In this document: in pieces, positions 1,471 to 38,974 of the stretch
How the letters are laid out: each line of letters begins with the position of its first letter
How positions within the stretch are numbered: position 1 is the first letter of the stretch
Notes under the pieces: model-generated
Seen by the model: the letters and a program-made list of their open reading frames with translations, nothing else
Databases searched by the model: none
What the model was told of the DNA's origin: nothing
Program-made: the position numbers and the translations under genes
DNA from: Patescibacteria group bacterium
GTDB lineage: Bacteria > Patescibacteriota > Doudnabacteria > UBA920 > O2-02-FULL-48-8
Direction of reading: 5' to 3'
DNA length: 64,000 nucleotides
Assembly: GCA_036278915.1 (NCBI GenBank)
Contig: DASUKB010000001.1
Span: forward strand, 173,186-237,185

Positions 1471-1500
1471 GTACGTACCCGGTACGTACGACGTACGTAC
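1471..1500. promoter_or_regulatory. three GTACGTAC palindromic octamers phased at 11 bp (starts 1471, 1482, 1493); candidate operator for downstream AbrB-like ORF
   Basis: Sequence acgGTACGTACccgGTACGTACgacGTACGTACgaac read directly, ending 10 nt before ATG at 1511. Confidence 0.4.
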
Positions 1501-1510
1501 GAACAAAAAT

Positions 1511-1678
1511 ATGACTAAAGCAAAAATTACAAAAATCGGCGGTCATTCCAGTTCAATTGTTATTCCTGTCCGGATTATGAAAGACTTACACTGGAAAACA
1601 AAACAGAAAGTAGATGTTAAACGAGTCGCGCGCGGCGTGAAGATCACGGATGCAAGGAGTAAAAAACGCCGGCAATAA
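1511..1678 (+). CDS. unannotated 55-aa SpoVT/AbrB-MazE-like (swapped-hairpin) DNA-binding protein
   Basis: Below the 60-aa cutoff of the ORF track. MTKAKITKIGGHSSSIVIPVRIMKDLHWKTKQKVDVKRVARGVKITDARSKKRRQ. Pattern G-x-S-x-x-V-x-IP-x-x-[IL]...V-x-V matches MazE/AbrB N-domain. Clear paralog at 38736-38915 (-). Confidence 0.5.
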   Translation: MTKAKITKIGGHSSSIVIPVRIMKDLHWKTKQKVDVKRVARGVKITDARSKKRRQ

Positions 1679-3606: not shown

Positions 3607-3615
3607 ATAATTAAT

Positions 3616-3750
3616 AACCCCTTCCAACCTCCCCTTATGTTAAGAGGAGGAGTAGACTAAGACCAGGCTGCAGCTTGGTTTGGGTTTACCCCCTCTTAGA
3701 ATAAGAGGGGGTACGTAACACGAGGATTATCGGGGGAGTTAGAAACAAAT
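3616..3750 (+). repeat. structured intergenic/leader element, copy 2
   Basis: Near-identical to 1689-1814. Ends GGGGGAGTTAGAAACAAA, 5 nt before the gap ATG. Confidence 0.6.
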
Positions 3751-10004: not shown

Positions 10005-11690
10005 ATGAAAAAGCGCTGGGTGGTGAAAGAGAAACCAAACGAGATCCCAAATTTGCCAGAGTACGAAGGCCTGGTTTTGGGATTGCTGGCGGCAAGAGGG
10101 CTTACCACCAAAGAACAAATCGAAGATTTTTTAAATCCAGATTACAACAAACTGCATGACCCGTTTTTGTTCGCAGATATGCAAAAGATATGTGCGCGTA
10201 TTTTTGATGCCATAAAAAATCAGGAAAAAATTGTCATTTATTCTGACTACGATGCCGATGCCATAACCGCGCTTGCGGTAATGTACCTGGCGCTCAAAAA
10301 ATTGGGAGCAAATCTGGATTATTATATCCCGGACCGGTTTGCTGAAGGCTATGGCATGAATGTTGAGGCTGTCAAAAAACTTTGCGAAGACGGCGCCAAA
10401 ATCATAATCACTGTGGACTGCGGCATCAATGCGGTGGAAGAAACTAACATCGCGCAAAGTTTGGGGACGGATGTTATAATTACCGACCACCACGAGCTTA
10501 CTGACGAATTGCCGAAAGCGTTTGCAATCATAAATCCCAAGAATCCGAATGATAACTATCCATTTCGGTTTCTCACCGGCGTCGGAGTGGCGTTTAAAGT
10601 TGTGCAGGCTTTGTTTAGGGGTGAGATTCTTTCCGGATGGGAAAAGTGGCTTTTGGATTTGGTTGCAATCGGTACTGTGGCTGATTTGCAGCCGCTCACG
10701 GGTGAAAATCGAATTTTGGTCAGCTTTGGCCTGAAGGTTCTGCACAAAACCAAATGGGCTGGTTTGCGCACGCTTATAAAGCTTGCAGGAGTAGACAGCA
10801 AAATTCCTGATACTTATACACTCGGGTTCATAATCGCGCCGCGCATCAATGCGGCCGGCAGGATAAAACACGCAGATGTCGCATTTAAACTACTGGTTTG
10901 TGAGGACGAAGCAGAAGCGCAAACGTTGGCCGAGGAATTAAACCAGCTCAATACTCACCGCCAACAGCTGACCGAGCAGGTCCTCTCTGAAGCGCGCAGT
11001 CAGGTTGAATTGATAGAAAACAAGAAAGTTCTGCTCGCTGCAGGCGCTGACTGGCCCAAAGGCGTGGTTGGTCTGGTGGCCGGCAAATTGGTAGAGGAGT
11101 ATGGCCGACCAGTGCTGGTAATGGATCGGGGGGAATTGGTAGCCACGGGTTCTGCGCGTTCCGTGCGCAACTTTGATATTGTCGCGGCTCTCACTCACGC
11201 CAAGGATCTGCTCACCAAATACGGCGGGCATACGCAAGCTGCGGGATTCACGCTTGTCACCGAAAACATTCCAGCTTTGCATCAGAAATTGCTAGAGTAT
11301 GCCGAGACTTTGGACGAGGAAACCTTGTCGCCAGTTTTGGAAGCGGATGCAGAGCTTGCGCCTCTGGATTTAAATATGGAAAATTACGATTTGATTTCCA
11401 AATTTGCGCCGTTTGGGTATGGTAACCACAAACCGAAGTTTTTAATTTCGTCTGTTGAAGTTTTAGAAATTCGACTCGTGGGCAAAGAATCTCGCCACTT
11501 GAAACTGCGGTTGCGAGCCGCTGAGAAAGTTTTGGACGCCATTGGATTCAATCTGGGGTTTTGGGCAGGTTCCCTTGAGCCTGGGGGCAAAGTTGATCTA
11601 ATGTTTGAACTTGACTGCAACGAGTGGAATAACCAAAAGAATTTGGAGCTTAAAATTTTGGATCTAAGAAAAAATAATTTAAAATTATAA
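10005..11690 (+). CDS. recJ: single-stranded-DNA-specific exonuclease RecJ
   Basis: 561 aa. DHH family motifs (IYSDYDADAITA, ITDHHE) and DHHA1-like C-terminal region. Confidence 0.9.
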   Translation: MKKRWVVKEKPNEIPNLPEYEGLVLGLLAARGLTTKEQIEDFLNPDYNKLHDPFLFADMQKICARIFDAIKNQEKIVIYSDYDADAITALAVMYLALKKLGANLDYYIPDRFAEGYGMNVEAVKKLCEDGAKIIITVDCGINAVEETNIAQSLGTDVIITDHHELTDELPKAFAIINPKNPNDNYPFRFLTGVGVAFKVVQALFRGEILSGWEKWLLDLVAIGTVADLQPLTGENRILVSFGLKVLHKTKWAGLRTLIKLAGVDSKIPDTYTLGFIIAPRINAAGRIKHADVAFKLLVCEDEAEAQTLAEELNQLNTHRQQLTEQVLSEARSQVELIENKKVLLAAGADWPKGVVGLVAGKLVEEYGRPVLVMDRGELVATGSARSVRNFDIVAALTHAKDLLTKYGGHTQAAGFTLVTENIPALHQKLLEYAETLDEETLSPVLEADAELAPLDLNMENYDLISKFAPFGYGNHKPKFLISSVEVLEIRLVGKESRHLKLRLRAAEKVLDAIGFNLGFWAGSLEPGGKVDLMFELDCNEWNNQKNLELKILDLRKNNLKL

Positions 11691-22508: not shown

Positions 22509-23312
22509 ATGAGATTTATCTACACCCGTACATTTACAATCGGCTTCGTTATCTTTGCCCTCGTCGCAGTCATTGCTATTTCCGACGCCAAAGGGTATCT
22601 GGGCCGAGTACGCGACGGATTTGCTCTTGGGTTTGGATTTGTGGAAGAAAAGCTTACCAGCGGCGTCAATTCCGGCAAGAATTTATTTGAAACTTTCTTT
22701 ACAATCCGAAAGCTCGTAAGCGAGAATTCTTCACTTCAGCAGAAAATAAATGAACTGTCGTTTGAAAATGCCAGATTACAGATATCGTCCAGTGAGAACA
22801 CCACGCTTCGTACAGCATTGGACTTTAAGCAAAAAGAAAGCTTAAACCTGGTGCCAGTGGAGGTAGTGGCAGCGGATCCGACTGGGTTCAACCAGGTTGT
22901 AACTATTAACAAAGGCAGTAGCGACAATCTGGCTTTGGGCAACGCCGTGGTGGTCGCGCCAGGACTTTTGGTGGGCAAAATTACGTCCCTTGCGCCGCAT
23001 ACGGCGTCCGTGACGCTTATAACGGATCCGTCTGTGACTGTGGCGGCTAAAGTCCCGGATTCTGGGGCGCAGGGCCTGGTCTCCGGCGAGCATGGACTTG
23101 GGCTGTCGTTCAATCTTGTGAGCCAAAATGAGGTCATCAAAACGCAGGATAATGTCGTCACTTCTGATTTATCCCAGGACTTTCCGGAAGGTTTGCTTAT
23201 TGGACAGATTGACTCCATTAAATCCCAACCCTCGGAATTGTTCCAACAAGCATCTATTTCTCCGGCTGCGGATTTACGCAATTTGAAATTTTTATTTGTG
23301 GTTGAACCCTAA
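22509..23312 (+). CDS. mreC: rod shape-determining protein MreC
   Basis: N-terminal TM, coiled-coil (SLQQKINELSFENARLQ), beta-rich C-terminal domains (LVGKITSLAPHTASVTLITDPS). Confidence 0.8.
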   Translation: MRFIYTRTFTIGFVIFALVAVIAISDAKGYLGRVRDGFALGFGFVEEKLTSGVNSGKNLFETFFTIRKLVSENSSLQQKINELSFENARLQISSSENTTLRTALDFKQKESLNLVPVEVVAADPTGFNQVVTINKGSSDNLALGNAVVVAPGLLVGKITSLAPHTASVTLITDPSVTVAAKVPDSGAQGLVSGEHGLGLSFNLVSQNEVIKTQDNVVTSDLSQDFPEGLLIGQIDSIKSQPSELFQQASISPAADLRNLKFLFVVEP

Positions 23313-23830
23313 TGCGGTACGGGATTTTTATTTTCATGGTTCTCGGCCTTATGGCAATCCAGGGCGGGATTCTTGCACCGTTCGGATTGAGCCATTTTGG
23401 CAATCTGGCGCTGGTGTTCGTGGTTATGGTACTTACAATTTCGGACCGATCGGAAAATCTTTATTTGGCGCTTATCGCCGGACTGCTCATGGACTTTGCT
23501 TCGGGTTTGCTGCTTGGAACATTTGTGGTCTGCATGCTGGCTGTGTTTGGGTTCACCTATTTGTTCGTAAAACTGTTTATCCAGCGCACAGCCGACAGGA
23601 AACTTGTACTGCTTTCGAGTGTCCTGCTCAATACTATAGTATTGAGTTTATGTTTCTGCGCTTTGGAGCAGCTGGCGGCTCATTTTCATCTGCCGGCAAA
23701 CACTGACTGGCATAATATTTTAGGGCGCAAATTGTTATTGGACTTGGCCGCAAACGCGATCTTAACCTATCCTATCTATTGGCTTTACGTATTTATGGAA
23801 AAATTGCAGTATCGTTTTGAAAGAATATGA
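23312..23830 (+). CDS. mreD: rod shape-determining protein MreD (polytopic membrane)
   Basis: 172 aa, 4-5 hydrophobic helices. Position between mreC and mrdA. Start overlaps mreC stop (TAATG). Confidence 0.65.
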   Translation: MRYGIFIFMVLGLMAIQGGILAPFGLSHFGNLALVFVVMVLTISDRSENLYLALIAGLLMDFASGLLLGTFVVCMLAVFGFTYLFVKLFIQRTADRKLVLLSSVLLNTIVLSLCFCALEQLAAHFHLPANTDWHNILGRKLLLDLAANAILTYPIYWLYVFMEKLQYRFERI

Positions 23831-36432: not shown

Positions 36433-36993
36433 ATGAGCATTGCGCAGCCACTCAAGGAATCATACATCCCTCGAGCAACGGACTATATCGATTCGGTTGC
36501 TGATCCGATCGAGAAGTATCAGCTCGCAGTCGAACCTCTCATTGCAGAGAGGGAGCAGCTCAAACAGCGGCTCAAGCAAATTGAAAACGAAATCGAAAAG
36601 CACGCCGGCCTGCGACATAAGATTGGACGATTGGTCCGCCGGTTTGCGCGCTACGCCCAGCGGCGGAAAGATGATTTCGTCAATGGCGGAAAGCGGACAG
36701 TGAAAACTGGTTCAGGATCATTCGGGTGGCGATTGAACCCGAGTGATTCGCTTGTTTGTGATCCCGGTCTTGAGCATAAAGCCATAAAGCGGCTCATCGA
36801 GCTTGAACGATGGGATCTGCTCGATTGCCGACTACGCAAAGATCCTATCAAGGCGGCTTTGCAAAGCGGGGATTTGAGAAGCATTCCAGGTCTTTCTGTG
36901 ATCCGAAGCGAGCGTTTCCTTGTGGCCCCCTCGGGATTGTGGTCTGTTAGCCTTTTTGAGGACGGCCATATCAAGCTTCAAGGCGAACGCTAG
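36433..36993 (+). CDS. gam: phage Mu Gam-like host-nuclease inhibitor / Ku-like DNA-end-binding protein
   Basis: 186 aa. Segment RRKDDFVNGGKRTVKTGSGSFGWRLNPSD...LVAP parallels Mu Gam RDELTNGGKVKTANLVTGDVSWRVRPPS...IIP (recalled from memory). N-terminal coiled coil. Gene is GC-richer than flanks. Confidence 0.7.
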   Translation: MSIAQPLKESYIPRATDYIDSVADPIEKYQLAVEPLIAEREQLKQRLKQIENEIEKHAGLRHKIGRLVRRFARYAQRRKDDFVNGGKRTVKTGSGSFGWRLNPSDSLVCDPGLEHKAIKRLIELERWDLLDCRLRKDPIKAALQSGDLRSIPGLSVIRSERFLVAPSGLWSVSLFEDGHIKLQGER

Positions 36994-38619: not shown

Positions 38620-38735
38620 ATTTAAGTGCGTTAATCGTTATTGGGCAGCGCGGCGCGTGGGGCGTTCGCGGCTTTCGGTTTGTGGACGTAAAACTTCAAC
38701 GTAAACCGATGCGCGCAGCGCTGCCGCTAAACGCG

Positions 38736-38915
38736 CTAGCGTTTTTTAGTTTTCGCATCGTGGATAAGTATACCACCAGCAACTCTTTTGAGCTGCAGGT
38801 ACTGGTGCTCATGCCAGCCAAACATCCTGACAAATTCCGCAGGCATTGCAATCACCAAAGTTTTCCCTGATCCCGTCTTGGTTAATTTACGTTTTGTGTT
38901 TGTTGGCCTTGCCAT
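38736..38915 (-). CDS. unannotated 59-aa SpoVT/AbrB-MazE-like DNA-binding protein (paralog of 1511-1678)
   Basis: MARPTNTKRKLTKTGSGKTLVIAMPAEFVRMFGWHEHQYLQLKRVAGGILIHDAKTKKR aligns to TKAKITKIGGHSSSIVIPVRIMKDLHW...VKRVARGVKITDARSKKRRQ. Sits between the two GT-C genes on the same strand. Confidence 0.5.
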   Translation of the reverse strand: MARPTNTKRKLTKTGSGKTLVIAMPAEFVRMFGWHEHQYLQLKRVAGGILIHDAKTKKR

Positions 38916-38930
38916 AAATTATATTGTTTA

Positions 38931-38954
38931 AGTATTGAGTTTAGTATTGAGTTA
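38931..38954. repeat. tandem 12-mer AGTATTGAGTT(T/A) x2 upstream of AbrB-like paralog
   Basis: Read directly. Lies between the GT-C stop (38975) and the small ORF start (38915) on the minus strand. Confidence 0.3.
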
Positions 38955-38974
38955 TAACTCGCCCCCGACGTTGT

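Follow-up and report, generated by a model that had tools for sequence, protein, structure and literature searches.

Bacillus AbrB, a protein of ~94 amino acids (aa), carries a C-terminal multimerisation domain, binds loose sites as a tetramer and belongs to the sporulation network of Firmicutes. The antitoxins MazE, ChpS and VapB have a C-terminal toxin-binding extension and an adjacent toxin gene, and Sso7c4, C56 (pSSVi), C68 (pSSVx) and 5itj are AbrB proteins of ~50-68 aa that have one domain only, end in a basic C-terminus and lack a partner gene. Sso7c4 is described as a chromatin-type binder, and no phased array of cognate boxes is known to precede its gene. MraZ (UPF0040), the autoregulator of the dcw cluster, does have such an array: it binds cooperatively to three (in Mycoplasma four) phased boxes that precede its own gene, whose transcription starts inside box 1, and repression is lost stepwise as the boxes are mutated (PMC12957436). 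Here, a comparable arrangement is described for two small open reading frames (ORFs) in a 64-kb window, the whole stretch of 64,000 nucleotides analysed from contig DASUKB010000001.1 of a metagenome-assembled genome (MAG) of the Patescibacteria (Doudnabacteria). ORF1 (positions 1511-1678, plus strand, 55 aa) and ORF2 (38736-38915, minus strand, start at 38915, 59 aa) are each preceded by a phased array of short boxes, and this gene-plus-array design is most likely the mark of a so far undescribed family of mini-repressors that regulate themselves and are not antitoxins.

In operator logic MraZ is the closest of the described systems, with a swapped-hairpin fold and 3-4 phased boxes upstream, although this is an analogy of design and not of membership, and the feature that defines MraZ was not found in ORF1 or ORF2. 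By the same comparison the present protein, at one third the size of MraZ, would act as a true homodimer on symmetric boxes. The architecture is that of Sso7c4, C56, C68 and 5itj, but profile searches of the PDB revealed no significant sequence relationship to Sso7c4 or C56, only similarity at the level of the fold, and the present family is mainly bacterial. Both the toxin-binding extension and the toxin gene of the MazE/ChpS/VapB systems are absent here. As compared to AbrB, Abh and SpoVT, the beta1-beta2 loop is four residues longer, a C-terminal domain is lacking and the repeated boxes are well defined. An earlier note on this DNA had proposed regulators of the transition-state type, a label that finds no support, as proteins of 55 and 59 aa have no AbrB-like C-terminal multimerisation domain and the biological setting is very different.

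ORF1 (MTKAKITKIGGHSSSIVIPVRIMKDLHWKTKQKVDVKRVARGVKITDARSKKRRQ) is a stand-alone SpoVT/AbrB-fold protein, in which the AbrB domain (approximately residues 5-47) is followed by a basic and probably disordered tail, RSKKRRQ. ORF2 (MARPTNTKRKLTKTGSGKTLVIAMPAEFVRMFGWHEHQYLQLKRVAGGILIHDAKTKKR) has the same single-domain architecture and is the top match of the family profile (E=4e-25). The two are paralogs, as the earlier note had recognised, with 42% identity over 53 aligned residues (E=5e-12), and they are the only two in the window, where no third paralog was found. In the public record of this MAG (a 386-kb contig) they are carried as the hypothetical proteins VFX17_01040 and VFX17_01220. Orthologs of ORF1 are known at 67-87% identity. 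When these were compared, the proportion of nonsynonymous differences (pN) was 0.10-0.25 and that of synonymous differences (pS) 0.65-0.94, with synonymous sites saturated; the ratio of nonsynonymous to synonymous rates (dN/dS) was ~0.07-0.10 where computable, and the C-terminal 25 residues were nearly invariant within the orthogroup. The conservation in related genomes that the earlier note had called for was thus observed, in ORF1 orthologs, in 188 family clusters and in the signs of purifying selection. Because of these clusters, the kept gene order and a low pN against a saturated pS, ORF1 and ORF2 are, by comparative criteria, real genes under strong purifying selection.

The array of ORF1, its putative operator, extends over positions 1471-1500 as GTACGTAC-N3-GTACGTAC-N3-GTACGTAC, three 8-bp palindromes that occupy 1471-1478, 1482-1489 and 1493-1500. 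They repeat every 11 bp, measured from start to start, and 10 nt separate the last box from the ATG, exactly as the earlier note had described. The window contains exactly three copies of GTACGTAC, all of them in this array, with 0.19 expected by chance and none of 100 shuffled sequences reaching three; no further phased GTACGTAC array is present in the window, even when one mismatch per box is allowed. The boxes are kept at four orthologous loci, namely the window and the loci designated L146, L003 and L001, with the third box reading ATACGTAC in L146 and with two boxes intact and one decayed in L001. Among these four, the spacers differ, the period is 11 or 12 bp and synonymous sites are saturated. 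Since the boxes have stayed nearly identical while spacers, period and synonymous sites diverged, selection acts on the boxes.

ORF2, like ORF1, has a three-position array of its own, which was overlooked in the earlier note. This putative operator occupies 38921-38960 on the minus strand and is composed of a palindrome GAGTTATAACTC, two copies of the 9-mer CTCAATACT (38951-38943 and 38939-38931) and a degenerate CAATAT (38926-38921), with spacings of 12 and 11 bp; 5 nt separate it from the ATG. The upstream region reads GAGTTATAACTCAATACTAAACTCAATACTTAAACAATATAATTT-ATG on the coding strand, and the box is given as CTCAATAC(T). The tandem 12-mer that had been noticed beside ORF2 is indeed present on the plus strand at 38928-38951 (TTAAGTATTGAG / TTTAGTATTGAG). 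The same array design is found in the relatives L066-L075 and L100, where ACTGAGTTAACTCATGAGTT abuts the ATG.

These arrays are not peculiar to the window. An exhaustive profile search yielded 188 clusters (50% identity, E<=1e-3) of proteins nearly all 55-65 aa long with the signature IRKLTK.G..S..VTIP.E.VR.LGW+EKQKV.VK....G..I.DW. Patescibacteria, Bacteroidales, Bdellovibrionales and Helarchaeota all contain family members. When a single genome per species was scanned, 61 loci were obtained, comprising one of Doudnabacteria (L005), a Patescibacteria single-cell genome (L040), one of Bdellovibrionales (L025), one of Helarchaeota (L036) and ~55 of Bacteroidales/Rikenellaceae, and a scan of metagenomes added at least 242 matches, mostly from groundwater and sediment, 80 of which were kept. 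Inspection of the 70 nt upstream of every family gene revealed 2-4 short box copies at most loci, ending 0-30 nt before the ATG. Phased boxes in this number precede the gene in about 130 retrieved loci from several phyla. Arrays were scored within the 60-nt upstream region as three 8-mers in direct or inverted orientation with a spacing of 10-13 bp (maximum 16), with the upstream regions of neighbouring ORFs from the same loci serving as controls; sorting of arrays by exact 6-mers was too strict for use. In the species-genome set, a score of at least 13/16 was reached by 40/66 family regions as compared to 4/215 control regions (Mann-Whitney p=1.3e-20), and no shuffled family upstream region reached a score of 14. 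An independent metagenome set gave 19/65 family and 3/245 control regions at the same score (p=2e-13). The operator-like repeats of the earlier note thus proved real and behave like cognate sites, but that they belong to a multi-phylum gene-plus-array trait had been missed.

Most arrays repeat every 12 bp, those of the window, L001 and L146 every 11 bp. The core seen most often is the palindrome TAC|GTA, found as GTACGTAC in Patescibacteria and as ATACGTAT, CTACGTAG and TTACGTAA in Bacteroidales. Between loci, the boxes within one array change together, for example among GTACGTAC, ATTACGTAAT, CTACGTAG, CCGTAT/ATACGG, CAGTAT/ATACTG, CACGTG and CTCATGAG. Complete arrays are exemplified by ATTACGTAATTTAATACGTAATTTAATACGTAATT in L012, CTATGTAG-N4-CTACGTAT-N4-CTACGTAG in many Rikenellaceae, CACCGTAT-N4-ACCGTAT-N4-ATACGGTG in L041 and L065, TCAGTAT-N5-TCAGTAT-N4-ATACTGAG in L018 and L035, three copies of TCACGTGAG in L119, CTCATGAG / CTCTAGAG / CTCATGAG in L084 and L122, and three copies of TTACGTA in L082. 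On inspection of the sequences, the non-palindromic boxes can be read as half-sites held in a 12-bp register.

The box type follows the adjacent protein. All four loci with GTACGTAC boxes share the beta1-beta2 loop GHS, and ORF1 orthologs with other loops have other operators: two copies of GTGTAAGAGCA in L002 (loop KGRS), the palindrome GCTCTGAGCATGCTCAGAGC in L004 (SKRS) and ACTGAGTTAAGTCATGAGTT in L005 (GSKS). L003 is further from ORF1 than L002 is, yet it has the same loop and operator as ORF1. Across 132 unique gene/upstream pairs, operator similarity was associated with the N-terminal arm, beta1, loop and beta2 when the C-terminal half was controlled for (partial Spearman 0.25, permutation p=0.003), with almost no contribution from the C-terminal half and the helix (0.04 and 0.035). 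AbrB and MazE contact DNA through their N-terminal segment. The DNA contacts of MraZ, Lys13 and Arg15, likewise lie in the N-terminal segment (PMC12957436). The array therefore covaries with the N-terminal, DNA-contacting half of the protein encoded next to it, and common descent of the DNA alone fails to explain the concerted change of the boxes. It is by this concerted change and covariation that an array can be assigned to its adjacent protein, and the operator-like behaviour of the repeats fits the earlier proposal of autoregulated DNA binders, not antitoxins.

Assignment of ORF1 and ORF2 to the swapped-hairpin SpoVT/AbrB/MazE superfamily is well supported by transitive homology and by the predicted structure, since homologs pass the PF04014 threshold and the model fits the fold. 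Homologs retrieved with the ORF profile reach 25.3-38.9 bits on PF04014, above its cut-off. With hhalign, the family profile matched AbrB-N at 89% probability (E=2e-6) and MazE at 68% probability, in both cases against a comparator sequence entered by hand. The best sequence matches of a wider profile in the PDB were AbrB N-domains, aligned over the whole domain but not significant (E=0.14). AlphaFold2 predicted a beta-beta-alpha-beta-beta monomer from a 63-sequence alignment with a mean predicted local distance difference test score (pLDDT) of 86.3 and a low-confidence basic tail; with an alignment of 8 sequences the pLDDT was 74 and the topology unchanged. The predicted structure has the half-barrel topology and resembles solved swapped-hairpin members, MazE and VapB being among the top structural matches. 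NCBIfam contains no model for the family and gave only sub-threshold matches to ChpS (E=0.011) and AbrB, and PHROGs gave a single weak match, to a family of unknown function. The comparison with PF04014, AbrB and MazE profiles that the earlier note had suggested thus had a divided outcome, with a match for the homologs and the family profile and sub-threshold Pfam scores for the two ORFs themselves.

With respect to promoters, in the Bacteroidales loci TTTG (usually TTTGCATC) stands directly before box 1 and TAnnTT follows 19-22 nt downstream, within box 2 and the next spacer, an arrangement with the shape of the Bacteroidetes -33/-7 promoter. TTTG-N19-22-TAnnTT overlying the array was counted at 14/55 family loci and 14/257 controls; in most cases 23-24 nt separate the end of the -7-like element from the ATG. 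In loci of the candidate phyla radiation (CPR) type, TAnAAT is often seen immediately 5' of the first box, with a modest enrichment (30/65 vs 64/219).

Taken together, it is probable that ORF1 and ORF2 are minimal AbrB-fold binders, each with a three-box operator of its own, which act as cooperative homodimers to repress their own promoter. The protein would assemble into a two-fold symmetric swapped-hairpin homodimer and bind its own array; one dimer would occupy each box, which is mostly palindromic, and three dimers would lie side by side, probably with cooperative binding between neighbours. The occupied array (~32-36 bp) would overlap the promoter or transcription start and thereby repress the gene itself and the downstream genes transcribed with it, which for ORF1 could be those for the downstream membrane protein, fructose-bisphosphate (FBP) aldolase (fba) and GAPDH (gap). 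Further, non-specific contacts with DNA may come from the basic tail at the C-terminus, as has been reported for Sso7c4 (PMC5222340).

Several observations weigh against this model of autorepression. With 18.1 bits (E=0.0026) for ORF1 and 12.4 bits (E=0.15) for ORF2, neither reaches the 24.7-bit gathering cut-off of PF04014, and sequence searches of the PDB with both family profiles gave nothing significant. About one third of the family loci have two boxes only, or a weak or no clear array. At the ORF1 array no sigma-70-like promoter was detected by a consensus scan; by eye, TTATAA-17 nt-AAGAAT can be seen before box 1, with 8/12 matches, one under the scan threshold. As this array lies behind a co-directional ORF of 62 aa, in a gap of 43 nt, read-through transcription of ORF1 from pfkB is possible. 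A period of 12 bp exceeds the helical turn, and successive dimers would be rotated by ~50 degrees unless the DNA were unwound or wrapped, so that binding to the same face would need distortion of the DNA or a superhelical arrangement of the protein. The 5' half of a gene is also physically nearer to the upstream DNA, and linkage could thus explain part of the covariation with the N-terminal half. Finally, dimerisation, binding, stoichiometry, repression and extra targets are all inferred.

The names in use for these proteins point to a different reading, namely that ORF1 and ORF2 are orphan type II antitoxins of the MazE/VapB/ChpS kind, whose toxin was lost or lies elsewhere and whose arrays are leftover operators. 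PF04014 is itself named MazE_antitoxin, sources label family members 'hypothetical' or 'MazE antitoxin', one ORF1 ortholog carries the JGI label 'antitoxin component of MazEF', and the weak ChpS match as well as the structural matches to MazE and VapB go in the same direction. Against this, a survey of 146 family genes revealed no recurrent adjacent same-strand ORF of at least 40 aa, the largest neighbour cluster comprising 6 loci, and PADLOC found no match among five window proteins (ORF1, ORF2 and the three small neighbours of ORF1), in agreement with the earlier observation that neither gene has a toxin partner beside it. Beyond the AbrB domain, which ends at approximately residue 47 of 55 in ORF1, the proteins have only 8-10 residues, a basic tail, which leaves no toxin-binding extension. 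Strong purifying selection and stable housekeeping positions (glycolysis, the spc operon, ychF, tsaD) also speak against an orphan antitoxin, and family members gave no tblastn match in plasmid and phage collections, hence no sign of a link to mobile elements there. Given the lack of both a conserved partner gene and a toxin-binding tail, the family members are, as judged from their sequences and neighbours, not toxin-antitoxin modules, and the orphan-antitoxin explanation is very improbable. The likelihood that ORFs and repeats arose by chance and have no function is close to nil: the ORFs are very short and below the Pfam threshold, but hundreds of homologs, a dN/dS of ~0.1 and repeats far beyond chance in both window and family refute it by conservation.

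A more serious competitor, which we nevertheless hold to be unlikely, is that the proteins are chiefly nucleoid-associated and chromatin-like, as is Sso7c4, binding broadly through the AbrB face and the basic tail, with the array setting only their own level. The single ~55-aa domain with a basic disordered C-terminus is shared with Sso7c4, C56 and histone-like AbrB proteins (PMC3159460, PMC5222340), the ORF1 motif has no other copy in the 64 kb, and gene contexts vary widely and are often monocistronic. However, the boxes have specific sequences that change together from locus to locus and covary with the encoded protein; several genomes hold paralogs with different box types, as with L018 and L041 in one MAG, which argues for specific recognition; and a phased palindrome at another place in the window is built from the ORF2 9-mer. 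Less probable still is action of the arrays at the RNA level, as hairpins in the 5' untranslated region (5'-UTR), a processing site or a translational operator, or their binding by an unrelated factor. The boxes lie within 0-30 nt of the ATG with no visible Shine-Dalgarno sequence, TAnAAT just upstream of the array in many CPR-type loci means that the array may be transcribed, and palindromic boxes are able to pair, a terminator-like hairpin having been called over two GTACGTAC boxes on the minus strand (1489-1471). This candidate terminator was discarded, since no minus-strand gene ends at 1471-1489. An RNA-structure explanation is rejected, as the leaders show no advantage in folding over shuffled sequence (z -0.59 for ORF1, +0.65 for ORF2 and -0.6 to +0.1 for L002, L073 and L012). 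In addition, direct non-palindromic arrays (ORF2, L002, L073, L080) are unable to form hairpins, a tRNA was the only match to Rfam in the window at gathering thresholds, and the box type covaries with the adjacent protein.

Concerning further sites in the window, the 9-mer CTCAATACT of the ORF2 array is present in 5 exact copies as compared to 0.2 expected, and phased pairs of it were observed twice with 0.00 expected. Two inverted copies form the perfect 20-bp palindrome CTCAATACTATAGTATTGAG at 23627-23646, located inside an mreD-like ORF (23312-23830) and ~205 bp upstream of a PBP2-like ORF (23851); judged from its sequence, this palindrome may be a second target of ORF2. A lone extra CTCAATACT at 10947 is isolated and intragenic and was set aside as probably due to chance. 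The paired ACGTAAA(A/C)C words described earlier were found at 38686-38694 and 38699-38707, at a distance of 13 bp, between ORF2 and the PMT_2 gene downstream of it. Apart from the ORF1 array, the window has no other phased TACGT/ACGTA pair; 1 observed vs 0.22 expected is not significant, and as a regulatory site they constitute a weak lead. The 116-nt GC-rich spacer in which they lie (38620-38735, minus strand) contains a 14-nt inverted repeat with 54 nt between its arms and folds no better than shuffled sequence (z=-1.5).

The immediate neighbours of ORF1 encode a pfkB kinase, a 62-aa membrane ORF, a 144-aa membrane-anchored CarboxypepD_reg-like protein and a 64-aa ORF. At the orthologous loci the micro-ORF follows pfkB, with or without a small membrane ORF in between, and precedes the genes for a membrane-anchored CarboxypepD_reg-like protein, a further small ORF, fba and gap, in this order. 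ORF2 is flanked by ORFs of 550 and 525 aa, both of which match PMT_2, a glycosyltransferase family of the GT-C type, and its position between two such genes had been read correctly from the outset. Its closest relatives (L067, L068, L074, L081 and L100; gene ~2501) are found inside the ribosomal spc operon, in the order L14-L24-L5-...-X-...-S8-L6-L18. Because these relatives sit away from glycosyltransferases, the glycosylation link is not conserved, and with ORF1 orthologs syntenic with glycolysis genes, the suggested control of envelope glycosylation genes finds no support. Elsewhere in the family the neighbours are ordinary genes such as ychF, tsaD, rhamnosidase, radC and metallophosphoesterase genes.

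Some additional observations concern the surroundings of the two genes. The relatives of ORF2 located between L5 and S8 are accompanied by an Asp_protease_2-like ORF and, in L067, also by a PGDYG-domain ORF. In the window, a 186-aa ORF at 36433-36993 (plus strand), ~50 bp from the end of a PMT_2 gene, matches the phage Mu Gam-like family PF07352 with 30.5 bits, just above the cut-off. Directly after ORF1, a 138-nt spacer (1679-1816) folds into three strong hairpins (-60.2 kcal/mol, z=-4.5), and a second copy, 85% identical over 135 nt, lies at 3615-3749 directly upstream of the GAPDH gene, both copies ending in GGGGGAGTTAGAAACAAA just before the next ATG. This element is absent from the orthologous spacers of L001, L002 and L146 and is not recognised by Rfam; possibly it is a structured intergenic repeat or a 5'-UTR.

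Other observations concern the family. Pairs of paralogs were found within several single MAGs (for example L014/L020, L010/L023, L018/L041 and L022/L035). On single contigs, two paralogs lie ~2.1-2.4 kb apart in L137 (2483 and 4579) and in L140/L143/L144 (~112-150 and 2468). In L140, AATTACGTAATT-type boxes precede both paralogs, which makes cross-regulation possible, and the gene after the second one appears by eye, from its DPPY motif, to be DNA methyltransferase-like. Gene callers often run the start upstream through the array (P0002, P0021, P0027, P0033, P0061 and P0064; L021, L034 and L046), and the resulting spurious N-termini, such as 'YV..YV..YV' and 'VRTWYVPHTY', are translated boxes. 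In L147 (277-477), protein P0008 joins an unrelated N-terminus, MKDKILNAAEKRMVKFGYRKVTMDEIAKDL, to the C-terminal half of the ORF1 orthogroup; its contig has only 575 nt, so that either an assembly chimera or a gene fusion is to be considered, and the N-terminus looks TetR-like.

In the open-access literature no description of this family or of its three-box arrays was found, though an earlier description elsewhere is possible. Reduced CPR genomes have few recognisable regulators, transcription control in Patescibacteria/CPR is little known and their small ORFs are mostly labelled 'hypothetical'. Against this background, a 55-aa protein that can feasibly be synthesised and an operator of ~30 bp provide a concrete and easily tested pair of protein and DNA site. 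Well over 100 loci with naturally diversified specificities constitute a data set on how the swapped-hairpin fold reads DNA, and the family is a possible source of compact orthogonal repressors. The annotation 'MazE antitoxin' also calls for caution, since members of the family do not belong to toxin-antitoxin pairs. A wider proposal, which we put forward only tentatively and as doubtful, is that these loci are cross-phylum cassettes of a gene plus a three-box operator, in which arm and hairpin have co-diversified with 12-bp-phased boxes into many orthogonal specificities, and which gate core operons in reduced CPR genomes. If this is true, the operons so gated would include glycolysis in the case of ORF1, the spc operon in that of the closest relatives of ORF2, and possibly envelope genes, through the mreD palindrome and PMT_2, in that of ORF2 itself.

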